Shown piece after piece: positions 10,672 through 20,274 of a DNA stretch of 32,000 bases. The stretch is from assembly GCF_003010495.1 (NCBI RefSeq), contig NZ_CP027570.1:2130001-2162000 (forward strand), read 5' to 3'. This stretch comes from Megasphaera elsdenii DSM 20460 (GTDB lineage: Bacteria; Bacillota; Negativicutes; Veillonellales; Megasphaeraceae). Positions within the stretch are counted from its first letter, which is position 1. Each line of letters opens with the position of its first letter. The notes beneath the pieces were generated by a model. It was not told the DNA's origin. It searched no databases and was given only the letters and a program-made list of their open reading frames with translations. The position numbers were made by a program, and so were the translations under genes.

Positions 10672-11133
10672 GTGGATTATTTAAAGGTCAGCCATGATTT
10701 CAGCGTGATAAACCAGCGTTCGCAAGCCTATGTGACCGAGGCCTGTCGGCCGTGGAAGTTATCTTATTCGGAACACGTGACCCTCATGAGCCTGTACAGC
10801 AACGACGGCTGCCGGCAGCATGAGCTCTGTCAGGTCATGAAGGCCGATAAGGCTTTGGTGGCCCGCAATCTGAAATTGTTGGAAGAGAAGGGGTTCGTCA
10901 GCCGCCGTCAGCAGGGCGATGACCGGCGCTATAAATATCTCTATTTGACGCCGAAGGCCCTGGATTTACAGGATACGATGGAGGGCATCCTCAAGCGATG
11001 GGTCGAGATTCTCGTCCGAGGTATCGACGAGGTGACGCTGGACAAGGCGTTCCAGCTTATGCATCAGGTGGCGGACAATGCCGTCGAGGCGGAAGTGGCT
11101 CCGCTGGATCCGCAGAAGGAGATGAAAGTATGA
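10672..11133 (+). CDS. MarR family transcriptional regulator
   Basis: A winged-HTH region is present: HVTLMSLYSNDGCRQHELCQVMKADKALVARNLKLLEEKGFVSRRQQGDDRRYKYLYLTPKA. The start is uncertain. GTG 10672 sits 9 nt after AAAGGGG; ATG 10663 directly abuts that SD; the track's TTG 10630 falls inside the operator at about +1 and is unlikely. Confidence 0.85.
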   Translation: MDYLKVSHDFSVINQRSQAYVTEACRPWKLSYSEHVTLMSLYSNDGCRQHELCQVMKADKALVARNLKLLEEKGFVSRRQQGDDRRYKYLYLTPKALDLQDTMEGILKRWVEILVRGIDEVTLDKAFQLMHQVADNAVEAEVAPLDPQKEMKV

Positions 11134-12221
11134 AAGCATATTGGAAATATACGGCTGCAGCCATGGCCGTCGTGGCAGCCCTCAGCCTGACAGGCTGCGG
11201 CCAGCAGACGCAGCAGGCCGAACAGCCCCAGCTGGTCAAGGCCATCCAGGTCGGCAGCGAAAGGGCGGGTACGACGGCTGGAACCTATTCGGGGACCGTC
11301 AAAGGCCGTTACCAGAGTAATCTGTCCTTCCAGGCCGGCGGCCGCATTACGGCCCGCAACGTCCAGCTCGGCTCGCAGGTCCATGCCGGCGACGTCTTGA
11401 TGACGGTCGATCCGAAGGATATTGCTCAGGCTGTCAACCAGACGCAGGCCAAGGTCGACGCTGCTGCTGCCCAGCTCCAGCTGGCCCAATCCAATTTGAA
11501 CCGCTATCAGCAATTATACAATATGGATGCCATCAGTGCGTCCGTCCTGGACCAGTACCAGACGGCCTACGACCAGGCTTCGGCCCAGTATAACCAGGCC
11601 CTGGCTGCTCAACAGGCTCAGGAAAACCAGTTGTCTTATACACAGCTCACGGCCGATGCCGACGGCGTCATTTCAGCCGTATCGGCCGAAGTCGGGCAGG
11701 TCGTCGCGGCCGGTCAGACTGTGGTCACCCTGGTTCATTCAGGGGACTTGGAAGTCCAGGTCAACGTGCCGGAAAATAAATTGGCCGATTTCCCGGTGGG
11801 CAAGAACGTGACCGTCACTTTCTGGGCCCTCCAGAACCAGCAGGCTGCCGGCGTCGTCCGCGAAGTGGCGCCCATGGCCGATGCAGCGTCGCGGACGTAC
11901 CAGGTCAATATTTCCCTGCCCAATCCGCCGGACGGCATGCAGCTCGGCATGACGGCTACCGTGGCTAACGGCAGTGAACAGGCAGTGGCTGAAGATACCT
12001 TCGTCCTGCCCTTGGCCGCTATCTACCAGACCGGCGACACACCCCAGGTCTGGGTCGTCGGGGAGGACAAGACTTTGTCCCTGAAAGATGTGACTGTCCA
12101 GGATTTTGGCGATAATAGCGTCAAGGTCACGGGTCTCAGCCGCGGCGATGTCGTCGTCACAGCCGGGGTCCATATGCTCAGTGAATGTCAAAAAGTCCGC
12201 GTAGAGGGGGAAGATGAATGA
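11130..12221 (+). CDS. Efflux RND transporter periplasmic adaptor subunit (lipoprotein)
   Basis: The product starts MKAYWKYTAAAMAVVAALSLTGCG (lipobox L-T-G-C). It has a coiled-coil segment (QAKVDAAAAQLQLAQSNLNRYQQLY) and a beta-barrel C-terminus typical of HlyD/AcrA-family adaptors. The ATG overlaps the marR stop (ATGA). The track's extension back to 10998 overlaps marR and was rejected. Confidence 0.9.
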   Translation: MKAYWKYTAAAMAVVAALSLTGCGQQTQQAEQPQLVKAIQVGSERAGTTAGTYSGTVKGRYQSNLSFQAGGRITARNVQLGSQVHAGDVLMTVDPKDIAQAVNQTQAKVDAAAAQLQLAQSNLNRYQQLYNMDAISASVLDQYQTAYDQASAQYNQALAAQQAQENQLSYTQLTADADGVISAVSAEVGQVVAAGQTVVTLVHSGDLEVQVNVPENKLADFPVGKNVTVTFWALQNQQAAGVVREVAPMADAASRTYQVNISLPNPPDGMQLGMTATVANGSEQAVAEDTFVLPLAAIYQTGDTPQVWVVGEDKTLSLKDVTVQDFGDNSVKVTGLSRGDVVVTAGVHMLSECQKVRVEGEDE

Positions 12222-15200
12222 AAAATTTATCGGAAGTCTCTATTCATAACCGCGTCCTCGTCTGGTACTTCATCATCCTCATCGCCATTGCCGGTATCTT
12301 TTCCTACATGAAACTGGGACGTATGGAAGACCCGACGTATACGGTGCGGACCATGGTCGTTTCCGTCGCCTGGCCGGGAGCTACGGCAGAACAGATGCAG
12401 GAACAGGTGACGGACAAGATCGAAAAGAAACTGCAAGATACGCCGAACCTGGATTATATCAAAAGTTATTCCCGGCCCGGCCAGTCGGTCATCTACGTCT
12501 ATCTCGACGACAAGGCGCCGCGCGACAGTATCCGCAGCACGTGGCATGAAGTCCGCAATCTGACGGAAGACATGAAGAAGGACCTGCCTGAAGGCGTCTA
12601 CGGCCCGTATTATAACGACCGCTTCGATGACGTCTACGGTTCTATCTATGCCGTCACCGGCGATGGTTATTCTTATGAAGAACTGCGCCAGAAGGCCGAA
12701 AAGATACGCCGCATGATGATGTCCGTCGACGATGTCAGCAAAGTCGAACTGGTCGGCGAACAATCGGAAAAGGTCTATATCGAAGTGGCTAATTCCAAAT
12801 TGGCCGAACTGGGCATTGCGCCGACGACCATTGCCGATGCCGTCAAAGGCCAGAACCAGATGACGCCGGCCGGTATGGTCGATACTCAGTCGGATAACGT
12901 CTACCTGCGCCTGTCCGGTGTCTTTGAAGACGTCGAAGCCATCCGCAACCTGCCTATCAATGCCAATGGCCGCGTCTTCCGCCTGGGTGACATCGCCACG
13001 GTCGAACGGCGCTATACGGAACCGGCAGACCCGAAGATGTTCTACAACGGCAAACCGGCCGTCGGCATCGCCTTGTCCATGAAGAGCGGCGGCAATAACC
13101 TGAAGCTCGGTGAAAACCTGAAGAAATTGCAGGAAAGCGTCAAATCCGATTTGCCGGCAGGCATGGAAATCCACCAGGTATCGGACCAGCCGCAGGTCGT
13201 CAAAGAGTCCATCAGCGATTTTACCAATACCCTGCGCGAAGCTATCATCATCGTCCTCGTCGTCAGCTTCCTCAGCCTGGGCCTGCGGACGGGCCTGGTC
13301 GTCGCTTTCTGTATCCCTCTGGTCCTGACCGGCGTCTTCTGCGTCATGGAAGTGGCCGGCATCGACTTGCATAAAGTCTCTTTGGGGTCCCTCATCATCG
13401 CCCTGGGCCTCCTCGTCGACGACGCCATCATTGCCGTCGAAATGATGACCGTCCAGCTGGAGAAGGGCATGAACCGCGTCGATGCGGCCTGCTATGCCTT
13501 CAAGGCAACAGCCAAGCCCATGCTGACGGGGACGCTCATCACTTGCTCCGGCTTCATCCCCGTCGCCTTTGCCGACGGGGCGGCGTCGGAATTTTGTAAA
13601 GATTTGTTCCCTGTCATTACGGCGGCCCTGGTCTTGTCGTGGATCGTATCGGTCATGGTGGCGCCGCTCTTCGGCTATTACCTGATCAAGCCCAAGGTTG
13701 CCCAAGGGACGGAGCCGGAACCGTTGTACCAGAGCCGGTTCTACGTCTTCTTCCGCAAGGTCCTGACCTGGTGCCTGACTCATCGGGCCCTGGTCATCGG
13801 CGGGACAGCGGCCATGTTCATCTTGTCTGTCGGCTTGATGAAACTCATTCCCCAGGAATTTTTCCCACCCTCTCTCAGACCGGAACTCATCGTTGAAATG
13901 ACCCTGCCTGAAGGCTCGTCCATGCAGGCGACGCAGAAAGAAGCGGCCCGCTTTGCCCAGTATCTCGACAGCCAGCAGGAAAAACTCAAGGATTATTCGT
14001 ATTACGTCGGAGAAGGGGCGCCGCGCTTCGTCCTGACCATCGAACCGGTCCTGCCGGCCAACAACTACGCTCAGTTCGTCGTCGTCGCCAAGGATACCCA
14101 GACGAGGGAAGAATTGACGCAGTCCATCAAAGAAGAAATGGCCGATAAGTTCCCCAACGTCCGCTGCAACGTCAAGAACGTGCCCTTAGGGCCGCCGTCG
14201 GATTATCCCATTATGCTGCGCGTATCCGGCTACGATACGGATAAGGTCAAAGCCTATGCCCAGCAGATTGCGGCGCGCATTGCCAAGGACCCGAATACGG
14301 AAAATGTCTTCCTCAACTGGGATCAGAAGAATAAGATCATGCACGTCGACCTGGACCAGAATAAATTGCGGGCCATGGGCATTTCCGGCGAAGATATTGC
14401 CAAGACCTTGTATACAGAACTGTCCGGGGCCACAGTCGCACAATACTACGCAGCCGACAAGACCATCGGTATCCAGCTGCGTCTTCAGGACAGCGACCGT
14501 AATGACCTGGCCAAAATCAAGAGCCTGCCTGTCTACGTAGGCCCGGCCGGTTATGTGCCGCTGGAACAGATTGCCAACGTTTCCTATAAAGGTGAAGATG
14601 GACTCATCTGGCGCCGCGATTTGAAGCCGACCATCACCATCAACGGCGGCATCAAGTCCGGTACGGCTAACGATGCGACGCAGAAAGCCTACGATTCTAT
14701 CGCCGATATCCGGGAAAGCATGCCCTTTGGCTATACCGTCGAAGTCGACGGGGCCCTGGAAAACAGCCAGAAATCCCTGAAATACCTGATGGTGCCCGTG
14801 CCTATCATGATCATCATCATTATGACCCTGCTCATGTTCCAGCTCCGCAGTCCGTCGCTCATGTTCCTGGCCCTGATTACGGCGCCCATGGGACTTATCG
14901 GCGTTTCCTGGGGGATGCTCCTCTTCGGGAAATCCCTGGGCTTCGTCGCCGACTTGGGCATCCTGGCCCTGGGCGGCATGATCATCCGCAACTCCATTAT
15001 CCTCCTGGACCAGATCCAGAAGCATATGGCTGCCGGTGAGGACCCGTGGCACGCCGTCATCGACTCGGCGGTCATGCGCTTCCGGCCCATCATGCTCACA
15101 GCCGCTGCGGCCATTTTAGGCATGATTCCCCTCATGCGCAGCGTCTTCTGGGGCCCCTTGGCCGTTGCCATTGCCAGCGGCCTCTTCGTCGCCACCGTCC

Positions 15201-15262
15201 TGACCCTGCTGGTCCTGCCGACGATGTACGCTGCCTGGTTCAAAGTAAAAAGAACGAGCTAG
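12218..15262 (+). CDS. RND efflux permease (AcrB/HAE1 family)
   Basis: The 1014 aa product has 12-TM architecture with two large periplasmic loops. The N-terminus NRVLVWYFIILIAIAGIFSY and the ALGLLVDDAIIAVE motif are typical of AcrB-type pumps. The start overlaps the adaptor stop (ATGA). Confidence 0.95.
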   Translation: MKNLSEVSIHNRVLVWYFIILIAIAGIFSYMKLGRMEDPTYTVRTMVVSVAWPGATAEQMQEQVTDKIEKKLQDTPNLDYIKSYSRPGQSVIYVYLDDKAPRDSIRSTWHEVRNLTEDMKKDLPEGVYGPYYNDRFDDVYGSIYAVTGDGYSYEELRQKAEKIRRMMMSVDDVSKVELVGEQSEKVYIEVANSKLAELGIAPTTIADAVKGQNQMTPAGMVDTQSDNVYLRLSGVFEDVEAIRNLPINANGRVFRLGDIATVERRYTEPADPKMFYNGKPAVGIALSMKSGGNNLKLGENLKKLQESVKSDLPAGMEIHQVSDQPQVVKESISDFTNTLREAIIIVLVVSFLSLGLRTGLVVAFCIPLVLTGVFCVMEVAGIDLHKVSLGSLIIALGLLVDDAIIAVEMMTVQLEKGMNRVDAACYAFKATAKPMLTGTLITCSGFIPVAFADGAASEFCKDLFPVITAALVLSWIVSVMVAPLFGYYLIKPKVAQGTEPEPLYQSRFYVFFRKVLTWCLTHRALVIGGTAAMFILSVGLMKLIPQEFFPPSLRPELIVEMTLPEGSSMQATQKEAARFAQYLDSQQEKLKDYSYYVGEGAPRFVLTIEPVLPANNYAQFVVVAKDTQTREELTQSIKEEMADKFPNVRCNVKNVPLGPPSDYPIMLRVSGYDTDKVKAYAQQIAARIAKDPNTENVFLNWDQKNKIMHVDLDQNKLRAMGISGEDIAKTLYTELSGATVAQYYAADKTIGIQLRLQDSDRNDLAKIKSLPVYVGPAGYVPLEQIANVSYKGEDGLIWRRDLKPTITINGGIKSGTANDATQKAYDSIADIRESMPFGYTVEVDGALENSQKSLKYLMVPVPIMIIIIMTLLMFQLRSPSLMFLALITAPMGLIGVSWGMLLFGKSLGFVADLGILALGGMIIRNSIILLDQIQKHMAAGEDPWHAVIDSAVMRFRPIMLTAAAAILGMIPLMRSVFWGPLAVAIASGLFVATVLTLLVLPTMYAAWFKVKRTS

Positions 15263-15363: not shown

Positions 15364-15385
15364 TATGTGATAAGCATTTCACATA
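15364..15385. promoter_or_regulatory. 22 bp palindrome overlapping the -35 of the flavodoxin operon promoter
   Basis: The sequence is TATGTGA-taagcatt-TCACATA, with 7 bp arms. It has TGTGA/TCACA half sites like CRP/FNR-family boxes, but with an 8 nt rather than 6 nt spacer. Confidence 0.45.
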
Positions 15386-15406
15386 ACAGAAAATGGAAGG
15401 TATACT
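15378..15406 (+). promoter_or_regulatory. Candidate promoter of the flavodoxin-AKR-polyferredoxin operon
   Basis: TTCACA (15378-15383), a 17 nt spacer, then TATACT (15401-15406), in an AT-rich intergenic region downstream of the RND terminator. Confidence 0.55.
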
Positions 15407-15470
15407 ACAAGTATGATATTGCTTTAAGTATAGGCCATAGTGAATGTAAGAAAAAAAGGAGATGTCTATT

Positions 15471-16211
15471 ATGAGGAAGAAAGTATTAGGTCTTGCTTGT
15501 GCCATGATGATGACGGCGTTCCTGACGGCTTGCGGTATCAGTGATATTACGGGTAAGTCAAGTTCATCTGGTAATCTGAGTCAGAAAAAGCTCACGAATC
15601 CGACCGTATCTGCGTCGGTAGTCCATCACCCCCAGGGAAACCCGCATAAGATTCTCATTGCCTATTTTACGTATCCGGAAAATACGGATGCCAAGGCCAT
15701 TCATTCGGATAAGTACGACGTCATGAGTTCAGCCAGCCTGAAAGTCAAGGATGGCGTCGCTGTTGGCAATAATACGGTTATTGCTGATTATATCGCCAAC
15801 CAGACTGGCGGCGATTTATTCTCTATCCTGACGGAAAATCCCTATCCGACGAGTTATGAAGAAACTGTCGACCAAGGCAAGGCGGAAATTCAGAATCAGG
15901 AACTGCCTGCTTTGAAGAGTCATGTCGATGACCTCAGCGGCTACGATACGATTATCTTAGTTTATCCAAACTGGTGGAGCACCTTGCCAGCGCCGGTACA
16001 GTCGTTCCTGAAGGAAACGGATATGTCAGGAAAACAGGTCTACGCTATCGTCACATCCGGTGGCAGTGGGTTCTCCGACACCATCCAGAACATCCAGCAG
16101 ACTGAACCGGGGGCTTCGGTCCACGAAGGATTTGCCCTGCATCATAAGGACATGGATAAAGCTGAAGAAATGACCCAGCATTGGCTGAATCAAATGGGGT
16201 TCACACAGTAA
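15471..16211 (+). CDS. Flavodoxin-fold lipoprotein (Flavodoxin_4-like), paralogue 1
   Basis: The product starts MRKKVLGLACAMMMTAFLTACG (lipobox L-T-A-C) and contains ILIAYFTYPENTD, YDTIILVYPNWWSTLPAPVQSFL and GKQVYAIVTSGGSGF. I preferred the ATG at 15471 (AAAGGAG SD 9 nt upstream) over the ATG at 15462, which abuts the SD. Confidence 0.85.
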   Translation: MRKKVLGLACAMMMTAFLTACGISDITGKSSSSGNLSQKKLTNPTVSASVVHHPQGNPHKILIAYFTYPENTDAKAIHSDKYDVMSSASLKVKDGVAVGNNTVIADYIANQTGGDLFSILTENPYPTSYEETVDQGKAEIQNQELPALKSHVDDLSGYDTIILVYPNWWSTLPAPVQSFLKETDMSGKQVYAIVTSGGSGFSDTIQNIQQTEPGASVHEGFALHHKDMDKAEEMTQHWLNQMGFTQ

Positions 16212-16230: not shown

Positions 16231-16956
16231 ATGAAATTGGTAAAAATCATGCGAGTTGTTTTCTTAGGGGCGGCTATGTTCCTGCTGACGGCCTGCGGCG
16301 AAACGGGAACTTCCGTGCAGAGCACGTCGGAAAATACAGCGTCGGCACCGGCTTCCGGCGTCTATGTGCCCAATCAGACGGGCAAGCCTATGTCGGAAGA
16401 CATCAAAGATGAATTGGAAAGCAAACATAAACAGGAAGCAGCTGCCATCAAGACCATCCAGGAAGAACCGAAGGGCAGCCATAAAGGCCAGCGCATCCTT
16501 ATCGCCTATTTCACCTGGGGCGGCCGGTCTGGTGAAGTGGCCCATATGATACAGGACAAAATCGGCGGTGACCTCTATGAAATCAAGCGCGACCCCGATT
16601 ACTCCCGCGATTACTCGACGGTCCTCAAAGAATCGGCGCAGGAAGTTGATGAAAATGTCCATCCCCAATTAGCCGGCACACAGCCCGACCTGTCGCAGTA
16701 CGATGTCATCGTCCTCGGCTATCCCTGCTGGTGGTTCACGGCGCCCATGACCATTCCGTCGTTCCTGGAAGGGAAAGATTTGGCAGGGAAACTCATCGTG
16801 CCCTACATGTGTTCCTATAGCAGCCCCTTTGAAGTCACCTTGCCGGCTCTGGCTGCCGCAGCTCCCGGTGCCCGCCTCTTTACGGGTCTGACCCTGGATA
16901 AAGATACGGATTACAGCGTCATCGATCCCTGGCTGGATAAGGCCGGATTGTTATAA
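16231..16956 (+). CDS. Flavodoxin-fold lipoprotein (Flavodoxin_4-like), paralogue 2
   Basis: The product starts MKLVKIMRVVFLGAAMFLLTACG (lipobox L-T-A-C) and contains ILIAYFTWGGRSGEVA, YDVIVLGYPCWWFTAPMTIPSFL and GKLIVPYMC. A GGAGGG SD lies 6 nt upstream. Confidence 0.85.
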   Translation: MKLVKIMRVVFLGAAMFLLTACGETGTSVQSTSENTASAPASGVYVPNQTGKPMSEDIKDELESKHKQEAAAIKTIQEEPKGSHKGQRILIAYFTWGGRSGEVAHMIQDKIGGDLYEIKRDPDYSRDYSTVLKESAQEVDENVHPQLAGTQPDLSQYDVIVLGYPCWWFTAPMTIPSFLEGKDLAGKLIVPYMCSYSSPFEVTLPALAAAAPGARLFTGLTLDKDTDYSVIDPWLDKAGLL

Positions 16957-16972: not shown

Positions 16973-18358
16973 ATGAGTCACGATATCAGCCGGCGGACTT
17001 TTTTGAAGCTCCTCGGCGGGGGACTGGCTGGGGCAGCTGCTGGCGGGGCTTTGGTGAAGCGCGAGGATATCCTGGCTTTTCTCGATGCCGATAAGGCTGC
17101 CGGGGCAGCCGGAACGGCCTTGGGAAAAGTCACGACGCGCTACTATAAGCCCCTCGGGAAAGACTTGTCTCTCCTGGGCTTTGGCTGCATGCGCCTGCCG
17201 ACGACCTTTACAGCGTCGGGCCGGGAAATAGATAAGGAATTAGGCGAGAAGATGGTCGATTTTGCCTATCGCCACGGCATCAATTATTTTGATACGGCCT
17301 GGTTCTACCACGACGGGAAGTCCGAAGCCTTCATCGGCCAGGCCTTGCAGAAATATCCCCGCGACACAGTCTATCTGGCCGACAAGATGCCGACGCCCAT
17401 CTTGACGGGACTCGATCAGGCAAAGGATATCTTCCAGACCCAGCTCGACCGCTGCCAAGTTGCGTATTTCGACAACTACATGCTTCATTCCCTGACCAGT
17501 CAGGACCAGTTCGATGAACTTTACATCCAAGACGGCATCCTGGACTACCTTCGCCAGGAAAAAGCCCGGGGCCGCATCCGTTGCCTGGGCTTTTCCTTCC
17601 ACGGTGACGTGCCCTTCTTTCATTATCTCCTGGACCAGTATGATTGGGATTTCTGCATGATCCAGCTCAACTATGCCGACTGGAACGAACCGGGCGAAGC
17701 GCCGGCAGGGAGCCGCCAGGCCGGGGACCTGTACCGCAAGTGCCGAGAAAAGGATGTCCCCATTTTCGTCATGGAACCGGTCAAAGGGGGCAACCTGGCC
17801 AATCTGTCATCGTCGGCAGAAGCCATCTTGAAGCAGCAGCGGCCAGAGGCCAGCATGGCGTCGTGGGCCCTGCGCTGGGTCGGCTCTAAAGAAGGGGTCA
17901 TCACCATGAATTCAGGCATGAGCAATTTGGAACAGGTCCTGGACAATATCCGGACCCTGAGCAATTTTCAGCCCTTATCGGCCGCCGAAGAGCGGGCTAT
18001 CCAGCGCTCCCTGGGGAAGGAAGCCGGCAGCGGGGCCATTCCCTGTACCTATTGCCGTTACTGTGAACCCTGCCCCTACGGTGTCGACATCGCCGGAGTC
18101 TTTCATATCTACAACCGTTATGGCGAACCGGCCGGAATCGACGTGGACCATCCCCAAGGGGCCTCGGCAGCACAGGAGAAAGTCTTCCTGGCCCATTATC
18201 AGAATAACCTGGAACGGCCGCAGCGCGCTTCCCACTGTACAGCCTGCGGCCGCTGTCTGCCCAAGTGTCCGCAGCATATCGACATCCCTAAGTACGTGCG
18301 GGCCATTGATGATGTTGTCCAATATTTCGGGCGCGATACAGGAAAGGGGATAGTGTAA
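16973..18358 (+). CDS. Aldo/keto reductase with a C-terminal Fe-S domain and an N-terminal twin-arginine signal
   Basis: The N-terminus MSHDISRRTFLKLLGGGLAGAAAGGA matches the Tat consensus S-R-R-x-F-L-K plus an h-region. AKR tetrad contexts are present: YFDTAWFYHDG (Asp, Tyr), YLADKM (Lys) and YMLHS (His). The C-terminus has CTYCRYCEPCP (CX2CX2CX2CP) and CTACGRCLPKCP (CX2CX2CX3CP). A GGAGGA SD lies 6 nt upstream. Confidence 0.9.
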   Translation: MSHDISRRTFLKLLGGGLAGAAAGGALVKREDILAFLDADKAAGAAGTALGKVTTRYYKPLGKDLSLLGFGCMRLPTTFTASGREIDKELGEKMVDFAYRHGINYFDTAWFYHDGKSEAFIGQALQKYPRDTVYLADKMPTPILTGLDQAKDIFQTQLDRCQVAYFDNYMLHSLTSQDQFDELYIQDGILDYLRQEKARGRIRCLGFSFHGDVPFFHYLLDQYDWDFCMIQLNYADWNEPGEAPAGSRQAGDLYRKCREKDVPIFVMEPVKGGNLANLSSSAEAILKQQRPEASMASWALRWVGSKEGVITMNSGMSNLEQVLDNIRTLSNFQPLSAAEERAIQRSLGKEAGSGAIPCTYCRYCEPCPYGVDIAGVFHIYNRYGEPAGIDVDHPQGASAAQEKVFLAHYQNNLERPQRASHCTACGRCLPKCPQHIDIPKYVRAIDDVVQYFGRDTGKGIV

Positions 18359-19816
18359 ATGCGGAACATGCTGCAACGGGGACGCATCGTTTTATCGTGG
18401 CTCCTGATGGGGGCCATGGTCCTGACCTTTGCTGGTATCGTAGCACCCGTGCTGCCGCAATGGCAGGTCCTGCCGGCTCTCTTGGCTGGGAATCTCCTGG
18501 TCATCGCCGTCATCATCGTCCTGACCCTGCTCCTGGGACGGATCTATTGCAGCGTCCTCTGTCCCTTGGGAATCAGCCAGGACTTCGTCTTCTGGCTGGC
18601 CAAACGGCGCAAAAAGAATCGCCGGAAATTTACTTTCCGGCGGGAACGGCGCATCGTGCGCTATAGTATCTTGATGTTGACCGGTCTGGCTTTCCTGGCC
18701 GGCTTGTCTGGTTTTGTGGGGCTGGTCGACCCGTACAGTATCTTTGGCCGCATCGTCCACGATGGACTGGGCCTGCCAGTTGCCTATGGCTGGAACGCTT
18801 TGGTCGGGGTCAACGAAAGCCACGGCTGGATTCCGGTGCTGAGCAAGACGGATATCCTCTGGCCGCCGCTGGCTGCCATGGCCCTGGCCGGGGTTTATTT
18901 CGTCGTCCTGACTGTCCTGGCCTGGCGCTATGGCCGAGCGTACTGCCATACTGTTTGCCCTGTCGGCACGCTGTTGGGAACCCTCAGCCGCTTCAGCCTG
19001 TTCCGGCCGGTCATCGACGGATCGCGCTGCACCCACTGCGGGGCCTGTGAAAAGACGTGCCGTTCGTCCTGCATCGACGTCGCCCATGGCTTCGTCGATA
19101 CCAGCCGCTGCGTCGACTGCTTCGACTGCGTTGCCGTCTGTCCGAAAGGGGCCTTAACCTTTTCCCGGACCCTTCCGGTCAAGCTTCCGGAAAAAAAGCT
19201 ATCTGGTGAAGGTATCAGCCGACGGGAGATGCTGCTGACGACGGCCGTTGCCGCCGGGACCATCGCCGCAGGTCTGGCCCGCAGCCAGACCGTTGTTCCA
19301 GCCTTGATGGGGACGGGGAAGGGGAAGAAGAAAATCTTGCCGCCTGGGGCCGTTTCAGCCGATGCTTTTGCTCAGCGCTGTACGGCCTGCCATCTCTGTG
19401 TCAGCCGCTGTCCCAGCGGCGTCCTGGTGCCGGCCGTCTTGGAGAACGGCGCCTTGCAGATGGGCCAGCCCTACATGGATTTTTCTAAAGGCTACTGTGT
19501 CTATAACTGCAACTTTTGTTCTCAAGCCTGCCCGGCCGGTGCCATCCGTCCGCTGGAGCTGGCCGTGAAAGAAAAGACAAAAATCGGCATCGCCCGTTAT
19601 GCCCAATTCCACTGTCTCATCGCCCGCGACGGCATAGTCTGCGGTAACTGTGCCCGCCATTGTCCCGTCCAGGCCATTACCCTGGTCGAGAACAAGGACG
19701 GGCGCAGCTACCCGCACGTCGATGGGGCGCGCTGTATCGGCTGCGGTTCCTGCGAGTATCACTGTCCGGCCAAACCGGCAGCTATTTCCGTCAGCACCTT
19801 GCCGAAATCTTCGTGA
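18359..19816 (+). CDS. Membrane polyferredoxin: NapH/MauN-like 4-TM module fused to a NapG/MauM-like module through an RR-preceded fifth TM segment
   Basis: Four hydrophobic segments are present, with CSVLCP (aa 64-69) and CHTVCP (aa 196-201) CX3CP motifs. Next come CTHCGACEKTC and CVDCFDCVAVCP. Then SRREMLLTTAVAAGTIAAGLA (aa 287-307) and ILPPGA. These are followed by CTACHLCVSRCP, CNFCSQACP, CGNCARHCP and CIGCGSCEYHCP. The ATG immediately follows the AKR stop. Confidence 0.85.
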   Translation: MRNMLQRGRIVLSWLLMGAMVLTFAGIVAPVLPQWQVLPALLAGNLLVIAVIIVLTLLLGRIYCSVLCPLGISQDFVFWLAKRRKKNRRKFTFRRERRIVRYSILMLTGLAFLAGLSGFVGLVDPYSIFGRIVHDGLGLPVAYGWNALVGVNESHGWIPVLSKTDILWPPLAAMALAGVYFVVLTVLAWRYGRAYCHTVCPVGTLLGTLSRFSLFRPVIDGSRCTHCGACEKTCRSSCIDVAHGFVDTSRCVDCFDCVAVCPKGALTFSRTLPVKLPEKKLSGEGISRREMLLTTAVAAGTIAAGLARSQTVVPALMGTGKGKKKILPPGAVSADAFAQRCTACHLCVSRCPSGVLVPAVLENGALQMGQPYMDFSKGYCVYNCNFCSQACPAGAIRPLELAVKEKTKIGIARYAQFHCLIARDGIVCGNCARHCPVQAITLVENKDGRSYPHVDGARCIGCGSCEYHCPAKPAAISVSTLPKSS

Positions 19817-19818
19817 CT

Positions 19819-20274
19819 TCAGTCTTCCGGGTCGGTGGCGATATCCGGTTCGTTCTTGCGGTTGAAGCCGATGATGCGGCGCGGCTTTTCAATGTCGTCG
19901 TGGCGGGGGACGGCGACGAGGAGCAGGTTGAGCTGGGAAATATGCTGGACCAGTTCGACGGCCGATCCGTCGGACAATTCGCCGTAAAAGACGATCATGT
20001 TCGGATCCCAGTAGCCGATATCCTGGATGCTGAAGGTGATATCGCCAGCTGATACCAGGCGGCCGCCGGCCTGCATGTCGTCGGGCAGGCCCGACTCAAA
20101 GTTGTTGATCAGGGCGACGATGCGCTGATACATGTCTGAGGCCAGGTAGGGCGCTTCCGGATCTTCGTCTTCTTCTGGAACGGCGCCGGGCTGGAGGATC
20201 GTCAGTTCCTTTTCGGCTTCCGCGTCTTTTTCGGGAGTTCCTTGTTGTTTTTTCTTATCCATTACGTCTGCCAT
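19819..20274 (-). CDS. Hypothetical acidic protein (151 aa)
   Basis: The ATG at 20274 has a GGAGGG SD 6 nt upstream. The composition looks coding, unlike the + strand ORF 19660..20052. I recognise no family. The stop lies 2 bp from the convergent stop at 19816. Confidence 0.7.
   Translation of the reverse strand: MADVMDKKKQQGTPEKDAEAEKELTILQPGAVPEEDEDPEAPYLASDMYQRIVALINNFESGLPDDMQAGGRLVSAGDITFSIQDIGYWDPNMIVFYGELSDGSAVELVQHISQLNLLLVAVPRHDDIEKPRRIIGFNRKNEPDIATDPED

Follow-up and report, generated by a model that had tools for sequence, protein, structure and literature searches.

A fused NapH-like and NapG-like polyferredoxin of Megasphaera elsdenii with an internal twin-arginine motif, and the conserved neighbourhood of its gene

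The polyferredoxin gene and its parts

We analysed a stretch of 32,000 nucleotides from Megasphaera elsdenii DSM 20460 (assembly GCF_003010495.1, contig NZ_CP027570.1, forward-strand positions 2,130,001 to 2,162,000), called the window throughout, in which coordinates are counted from the first letter. The gene in question encodes a membrane protein in which a unit resembling NapH precedes a unit resembling NapG, and it is referred to as the PFD gene after the polytopic polyferredoxin (PFD) family, with which its product is compared below. Its parts and the genes ahead of it are listed in Table 1. The original prediction placed an internal twin-arginine motif, followed by a fifth transmembrane (TM) segment, at 19217-19285. 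This interval encodes S287 to S309, and the peptide quoted for it, GISRREMLLTTAVAAGTIAAGLARSQ (aa 285-310, the codon of G285 beginning at nt 19211), runs two residues further upstream and one further downstream. The four TM segments and two ferredoxin motifs said to lie ahead of the SRR segment, and the ILPPGA sequence (aa 326-331) and four Cys motifs (aa 341-351, 380-391, 419-435 and 459-469) said to lie behind it, were all present in the translation.

The first four TM segments, each of 19 residues, are strongly hydrophobic (Kyte-Doolittle means 2.1-2.9). By the positive-inside rule (the N-terminus reads MRNMLQRGR, and the loop reads KRRKKNRRKFTFRRERR) and by homology to NapH, the cytoplasmic side is predicted to contain the N-terminus, the pair of CX3CP motifs and the ferredoxin domain with its two clusters. 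A Shine-Dalgarno-like sequence, GGAAAGGGG, lies 9 nt upstream of the ATG at 18359. A mis-called start or a frame artefact was rejected in view of this sequence, the identical start of homologues and the abutting aldo-keto reductase and PFD genes at two further loci (L001 and L003). The database search returned more than 7000 relatives, of which the closest are Megasphaera proteins with 98% (cluster P0001), 94% ('uncultured Megasphaera sp.') and 68% (M. hexanoica) identity.

Table 1. Coordinates in the window of the PFD gene, its parts and the genes ahead of it (AF2, AlphaFold2; pLDDT, predicted local distance difference test score; AKR-FeS, aldo-keto reductase with an iron-sulphur domain)
Feature	Coordinates	Strand	Basis
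Promoter-like site ahead of the four-gene cluster	15378..15406	+	10/12 consensus positions; consensus match only
Flavodoxin_4 lipoprotein 1 (LTAC lipobox), probably same operon	15462..16211	+	Pfam, sequence
Flavodoxin_4 lipoprotein 2 (LTAC lipobox)	16231..16956	+	Pfam, sequence
AKR-FeS, probable partner: aldo-keto reductase with Tat signal (SRRTFLK) and C-terminal two-motif Fe-S domain, 461 aa	16973..18358	+	Pfam
PFD gene: NapH-like/NapG-like fused polytopic polyferredoxin, 485 aa	18359..19816	+	Open reading frame, Pfam and NCBIfam matches, Megasphaera homologues
TM1, aa 10-28	18386..18442	+	Kyte-Doolittle mean 2.31, negative Hessa sum; AF2 helix 2-24
TM2, aa 41-59	18479..18535	+	Kyte-Doolittle mean 2.92; AF2 helix 46-59
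First CX3CP motif (C64, C68, P69), cytoplasmic face	18548..18565	+	Invariant in 46 homologues; aligns with NapH CSWVCP
Arg/Lys-rich, probably cytoplasmic loop, aa 81-100, AKRRKKNRRKFTFRRERRIV	18599..18658	+	Sequence reading
TM3, aa 104-122	18668..18724	+	Kyte-Doolittle mean 2.08; AF2 helix 98-114/117-123
TM4, aa 171-189	18869..18925	+	Kyte-Doolittle mean 2.23; AF2 helix 171-191
Second CX3CP motif (C196, C200, P201)	18944..18961	+	Invariant in 46 homologues; aligns with NapH CGHICP
Cytoplasmic ferredoxin domain: C224/227/230/234 (+C238), C251/254/257/261-P262	19028..19144	+	Pfam Fer4_10 and Fer4_6; all Cys invariant
Twin-arginine motif S287-R288-R289-E290-M291-L292	19217..19234	+	Conservation; aligned on RR of the tested Q1NSB0
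TM5 / Tat h-region, aa 291-307, 17 uncharged residues	19229..19279	+	Weak hydrophobicity; AF2 helix 288-307
Positively charged linker: R308, K321, K323-K325, no acidic residue	19280..19333	+	Net charge +5; AF2 pLDDT <50 at aa 308-320
NapG-like, predicted periplasmic domain: ILPPGA and four 4-Cys motifs (16 Cys)	19334..19792	+	NapG BLASTP; NF007012 and TIGR00397; Cys invariant

Relationship of the two halves to NapH and NapG

Two Pfam matches to the NapH-type domain Fer4_5 were found in the protein, in addition to several ferredoxin domains. We compared it by BLASTP with the nap proteins of Escherichia coli K-12 (locus L087). NapH aligned with aa 14-269 (E 4e-11) and NapG with aa 325-478 (E 6e-19, 33% identity), the latter alignment opening at RLRPPGA of NapG, directly after the signal peptide by which NapG itself enters the twin-arginine translocation (Tat) pathway. 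Profile searches gave 89.5 bits for the NapG model NF007012 over aa 286-478 (model positions 9-205; curated cut-off 269), 83.4 bits for the MauM/NapG model TIGR00397 starting at aa 288 (cut-off 178.85), 69.6 bits for the NapH/MauN model TIGR02163 (cut-off 213.05) and 60.7 bits for NF007013 (cut-off 234), so that every score lay below its curated cut-off. The NapG and MauM profile matches begin at aa 286-288, in the signal region and upstream of the first Cys motif. From RR to PPGA the window protein spans 39 aa, compared with 36 aa for E. coli NapG. Given where the NapG alignment starts and the spacing between RR and PPGA, the internal RR segment occupies the position of the N-terminal Tat signal of NapG. 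The comparisons thus bear out the proposals that the protein joins a NapH-like to a NapG-like unit, that its C-terminal half is related to NapG and MauM, and that the NapG signal has been retained internally.

In E. coli napG is followed by napH, and in the fusion the NapH part comes first. Since this order is opposite, loss of a stop codon between two such neighbours cannot explain the architecture of the PFD protein.

Match to a published protein family

Prokaryotic proteomes have been screened for proteins with an even number of TM helices, a twin-arginine motif and one more helix (Tooke, Babot, Chandra, Buchanan & Palmer, 2017; eLife 6:e26577, PMC5449189). The PFD family was found by that screen and described as a NapH-NapG fusion. 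When the TM region of one member, Q1NSB0 of the delta proteobacterium MLMS-1, was fused to MBP or AmiA, the RR pair and a working Tat system were both required for export. For Sec to hand the protein over to Tat, the fifth TM segment (TMD5) had to be weakly hydrophobic and to have positive charges behind it (PMC5449189). A member from the Negativicutes, that of Anaeroarcus burkinensis, is already included in the alignment of Figure 6 of the same paper.

We aligned the window protein with Q1NSB0, using residues 1-364 as given in the supplement of that paper, a comparison that stops short of the C-terminal half. Residues 60-308 aligned collinearly with residues 82-358 of Q1NSB0 (BLASTP, E 6e-16), CX3CP falling on CX3CP and RR on RR. 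All of the sequence-level defining features of the family are present in the window protein, and it is therefore very likely, as judged from its sequence, that the protein belongs to the PFD family and is inserted by Sec and then by Tat. The dependence on Tat and on the RR pair, demonstrated by others for the homologue Q1NSB0, would by extension apply here. The architecture and the Sec/Tat mechanism have been known since 2017, and the NapH-NapG idea in the original prediction is right but not new.

The twin-arginine motif and the fifth transmembrane segment

Conservation of the motif was assessed in 111 full-length homologues, down to 40% identity; statistics for TM5 were compiled from 109 homologues, and the invariance of Cys and other residues was read from a separate alignment of 46 sequences. 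The twin arginine, as RR or KRR, is kept in 109 of the 111 homologues, as the original prediction required of orthologues. Scoring gave 80 RR and 29 KR, and the latter also hold an RR pair because their sequence reads KRR. RR (or KRR) and PPGA align in all clusters except P0094, with GRRTF at the twin-arginine position in P0092. R289 is at least 90% conserved, and all 28 cluster-ligand Cys residues, together with C238, are invariant. The motif is not a chance occurrence, since it is kept in nearly all homologues and the NapG and MauM profiles begin in the signal region.

Cluster P0094, which holds nine sequences, reads SRQKFL where others read SRRxFL and is the sole group of full-length homologues that has no twin arginine. 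This cluster may represent a decaying copy, or it could serve as a natural test of whether RR is needed.

Hydrophobicity was expressed as Kyte-Doolittle means and as Hessa sums; the latter were simplified and position-independent, so that the absolute figures are not comparable with those of the deltaG-prediction server used in the published work (PMC5449189). TM5 of the window protein (19-residue window, aa 291-309) gave a Kyte-Doolittle mean of 1.29 and a Hessa sum of +4.5, against sums of -0.4 to -3.6 for TM1-4. The same difference was seen in the homologues, in which the Kyte-Doolittle mean was 1.15 for TM5 and 2.40 for TM1-4; the simplified Hessa sum of TM5 was positive in all 109 (mean +7.3, compared with -1.0 for TM1-4). 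Between TM5 and PPGA the net charge is positive in 92 of the 109 homologues and amounts to +5 in the window protein. An AlphaFold2 model of the protein, built from the homologue alignment (pLDDT 84.7; predicted template modelling score 0.80), has a helix at aa 288-307, in agreement with the fifth TM segment that had been proposed. Behind it the model shows a linker of low confidence (aa 308-320), which it predicts to be disordered.

A profile search of Protein Data Bank sequences found generic polyferredoxins only (MvhB, 9sw6_G, at 2e-23; FwdF; RnfB), and Foldseek gave no match of the model to Protein Data Bank structures at E <= 1e-3; neither search brought up a structure of NapH or NapG type.

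Neighbouring genes in the window

The PFD gene is directly preceded by the gene for AKR-FeS. The TAA stop of the latter abuts the ATG of the former in the sequence GTG TAA ATG (18356-18361), and the two open reading frames lie in one reading frame. The Tat signal of AKR-FeS is canonical and sits at its N-terminus. The catalytic Asp, Tyr, Lys and His of the aldo-keto reductase appear to be present by eye. If exported as its signal predicts, such an enzyme would be unusual, working in a periplasm that has no free NAD(P)H. Just upstream of this pair are the two tandem Flavodoxin_4 genes, whose products carry lipoprotein signals (LTAC/G) and are predicted to be exported flavodoxin-like lipoproteins.

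An RND efflux operon (10998-15262) directly precedes the cluster of flavodoxin, AKR-FeS and PFD genes. The window also holds, among others, mfd, gdh, ppx/ppk and rpsB-tsf, and the rest of it consists of housekeeping genes. We saw no napA, napB, napC, mau or nos genes and no molybdopterin enzyme in the 32 kb, nor any ApbE or FMN_bind gene. The stop of the PFD gene lies 2 nt from that of a convergent DUF6173 gene (19819-20274, minus strand), and no terminator-like hairpin was seen between the two stops (19814-19821 region).

Gene neighbourhoods in related genomes

Scanning the species genomes of GTDB yielded 80 related loci (L007-L086), and four more (L001-L004) were fetched separately. The 80 loci belong to Megasphaera, Selenomonas and otherwise almost entirely to Bacteroidales, among them Bacteroides nordii, B. 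cellulosilyticus, Parabacteroides, Prevotella, Alistipes, Paludibacter and Muribaculaceae. A homologue of AKR-FeS adjoins the PFD gene in 60 of the 80, lying upstream in five and directly downstream in 55. Among 63 full-length adjacent copies, counted over the 80 loci and L001-L004, 62 carry RRxFLK and 60 carry both Cys motifs; at least 42 also have a lipobox Cys.

In about 15 other loci of the 80, a DUF362 protein with a Tat signal is encoded directly upstream of the PFD gene. This protein, of about 311 aa and with the signal MDRRDFLK, was seen in that position at L005, L006, L009, L011, L014, L016, L017, L019 and L028, and also at L030, L032, L035, L045, L048, L067, L069 and L086. The DUF362-PFD loci come from Bacteroides, Parabacteroides and Paludibacter, and none of those listed has an adjacent AKR-FeS homologue. 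According to the literature DUF362 is an uncharacterised member of the LarA clan.

Linkage to the genes of the translocase itself was also found. At six loci from metagenome-assembled genomes of Prevotellaceae type (L043, L054, L057, L071, L074 and L085), tatA, tatC and PFD form a tandem whose genes overlap or are a few nucleotides apart, and AKR-FeS comes next; in 14 of the 80 loci both tat genes are found no more than 6 kb from PFD. The linkage to tatAC and the Tat signals of the partner proteins provide independent genomic support for a connection of the PFD protein with Tat.

The same four genes as in the window, two for Flavodoxin_4 proteins followed by AKR-FeS and PFD, are found in M. 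hexanoica (L001, CP171361). Genes for exported Flavodoxin_4 proteins occur near PFD at L001, L007, L008, L053, L083 and L084, the first two of which are Megasphaera loci. In M. hexanoica the cluster is preceded by a gene for a MerR-family regulator (L001, 4847-5227), which is absent from the window and may mean that some strains control the cluster in response to redox state or metals.

Our literature search returned no paper on a periplasmic, Tat-signal-bearing Fe-S aldo-keto reductase (COG1453 gave only unrelated work), and nothing relevant on Bacteroides tatC with ferredoxin or on twin-arginine translocation in Megasphaera. No description of the conserved module of PFD with a Tat-exported AKR-FeS or DUF362 protein, or of tatA-tatC-PFD operons in Prevotellaceae, was found in the literature searched.

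Discussion

The features of the window protein are consistent with assembly in two stages. TM1-4 would be inserted co-translationally via Sec and YidC, which would leave the N-terminus, the CX3CP motifs and the first ferredoxin domain, with its two clusters, in the cytoplasm. TM5 would be left uninserted by Sec and released on the cytoplasmic side; that Sec should skip it is expected because of its weak hydrophobicity and the positive charges that trail it. The C-terminal domain would then fold and gain its four [4Fe-4S] clusters in the cytoplasm, after which the Tat translocase would recognise S-R-R-E-M-L and move the folded domain to the periplasm, TM5 staying behind as an anchor. The protein so assembled may be the 'single-polypeptide transmembrane electron wire' envisaged in the original prediction. 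We know of no NapH-type protein that has been structurally shown to conduct electrons across the membrane.

Some points weigh against insertion by Sec and then Tat. Identity to the experimentally tested Q1NSB0 is only 25% over the membrane half; the Hessa sums that set TM5 apart come from the simplified scale described above; an h-region of 17 residues is short for a stable membrane anchor; and no match to tatA or tatC was obtained in the 32-kb window by tblastn with Prevotellaceae-type TatA and TatC queries. That the host has a Tat system is indirectly suggested by the SRRTFLK signal of the adjacent AKR-FeS and by tatAC near PFD in 14 of the 80 related loci. The length of the h-region could point instead to a cleavable signal, such that signal peptidase I cuts the exported segment where the h-region ends (after G305-L306-A307) and the gene encodes a two-subunit precursor from which a periplasmic NapG-like subunit is freed. 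The uncharged run after RRx has a median of 17 aa in the 109 homologues and is mostly 13-18 aa long, as is typical of cleavable Tat signals such as that of E. coli NapG. It ends in a small-x-small sequence, GLA in the window protein and ALA-Q or AMA-Q in the six tatAC-linked homologues of Prevotellaceae type, and A.A occurs in 80 of the 109 homologues compared with 66 +/- 5 in composition-matched shuffles. This enrichment is weak, however, and the sequences are related and so not independent of one another; A.A is also frequent by chance because the h-region is rich in Ala. The lysines right behind the putative site are unfavourable for signal peptidase, and release of AmiA from the Q1NSB0 fusion required a signal-peptidase site engineered after TMD5 (PMC5449189), which suggests that the native segment is not cut in E. 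coli. We therefore consider cleavage unlikely.

It is very improbable that the RR pair and the weak stretch after it are a non-functional relic of a NapG signal, in which case the four-cluster domain would be cytoplasmic and the protein would consist of four helices and six cytoplasmic clusters. The marginal hydrophobicity of TM5 (Kyte-Doolittle mean 1.29), the RQ in place of RR in cluster P0094 and the lack of tat genes in the window would all fit a relic, but a relic would not have been kept in 109 of 111 homologues from both Negativicutes and Bacteroidales, nor would the positive patch have been kept with it. Moreover, the partner proteins carry Tat signals and are therefore periplasmic, tatA-tatC-PFD operons occur, and export of the Q1NSB0 reporters was Tat- and RR-dependent (PMC5449189). 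Although the best NCBIfam matches are to NapG, MauM/NapG and NapH/MauN models, hardly any probability attaches to the protein being a true NapGH quinol dehydrogenase of a periplasmic nitrate reductase, or the MauMN of a methylamine dehydrogenase, merely fused. All of these scores are far under the curated cut-offs, no nap, mau or nos genes were seen in the window, and the conserved neighbour is AKR-FeS or DUF362; a bona fide Nap or Mau system was rejected on the scores and on the lack of nap and mau genes in the window.

Under Sec-then-Tat insertion, the PFD protein would be the membrane electron-transfer subunit for the co-encoded, Tat-exported AKR-FeS, wiring it to the menaquinol pool or to a cytoplasmic donor. 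A link to menaquinol or another quinol is suggested by the likeness to NapGH. An enzyme of aldo-keto reductase fold would thereby work outside the cytoplasm, coupled to the membrane electron pool via ten or so Fe-S clusters. Whether PFD and AKR-FeS form a functional complex we regard as roughly an even question. Equally balanced is our judgement of the joint reading, namely that PFD and the abutting AKR-FeS constitute an undescribed two-subunit periplasmic oxidoreductase that is widespread in gut Bacteroidales and Negativicutes, is accompanied by two flavodoxin-like lipoproteins in Megasphaera, and has its aldo-keto reductase replaced by a Tat-signal DUF362 protein in a sister lineage. The gene neighbourhood supports the view that PFD serves redox enzymes exported to the periplasm by Tat as a modular partner in the membrane. 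In Prevotellaceae, where it directly follows tatA and tatC, PFD may be a principal Tat client, and the tandem suggests that the PFD/AKR pair is a major client of the pathway in bacteria with this arrangement.

The published rules for hand-over from Sec to Tat, namely an RR pair, a last helix of weak hydrophobicity and positive charges after it, are directly recognisable in the Megasphaera sequence. The family is abundant in Bacteroidales and Negativicutes of the human and animal gut, and nearly always paired with a Tat-exported AKR-FeS or DUF362 protein, sometimes inside a tatAC operon, which makes it a candidate for an uncharacterised redox activity in the periplasm of dominant gut anaerobes. 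For work on Tat in Bacteroidales it would also be a natural model substrate. The AKR-FeS/DUF362 module and the tatA-tatC-PFD operons merit follow-up above the twin-arginine motif itself.

Comparison with known systems

Q1NSB0 has the same order of parts as the window protein: TM1-4 with two CX3CP motifs, two cytoplasmic CX2CX2CX3C motifs, the RR pair, a weak TMD5, positive charges and a NapG-like four-cluster domain. The cytoplasmic region between TM4 and TM5 is shorter in the window protein, so that its TMD5 lies at about aa 291-307, compared with 338-359 in Q1NSB0. Partner genes are not discussed in the paper on Q1NSB0 (PMC5449189). Here the host is Megasphaera and the probable partner a Tat-signal AKR-FeS. 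The NapH proteins of E. coli and Wolinella succinogenes have four TM helices, two CX3CP motifs and two cytoplasmic clusters, like the N-terminal half of the PFD protein, and the NapG proteins of these organisms have a Tat signal, RPPGA and four clusters, like its C-terminal half. However, NapH and NapG are separate polypeptides, while PFD is one chain and has no nap context.

The logic of biogenesis is shared with the actinobacterial Rieske proteins (Sco2149 and QcrA of Mycobacterium tuberculosis) and with the heme-MoCo protein Sco3746 (PMC5449189). In these the early helices are inserted via Sec, the last helix is preceded by RR, weakly hydrophobic and followed by positive charges, and the cofactor-loaded C-terminal domain is exported via Tat (PMC5449189). 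Their folds and cofactors are nevertheless unrelated to those of PFD, and they have three or five TM helices, so that the likeness is one of mechanism and not of homology. NapH-like proteins have also been proposed as modular membrane partners in flavinylated extracytosolic electron-transfer systems (Meheust et al., 2021, eLife, PMC8238504). The outward carrier in those systems is a FMN-binding domain flavinylated by ApbE, whereas in PFD this role is predicted to fall to the Tat-exported NapG-like polyferredoxin.

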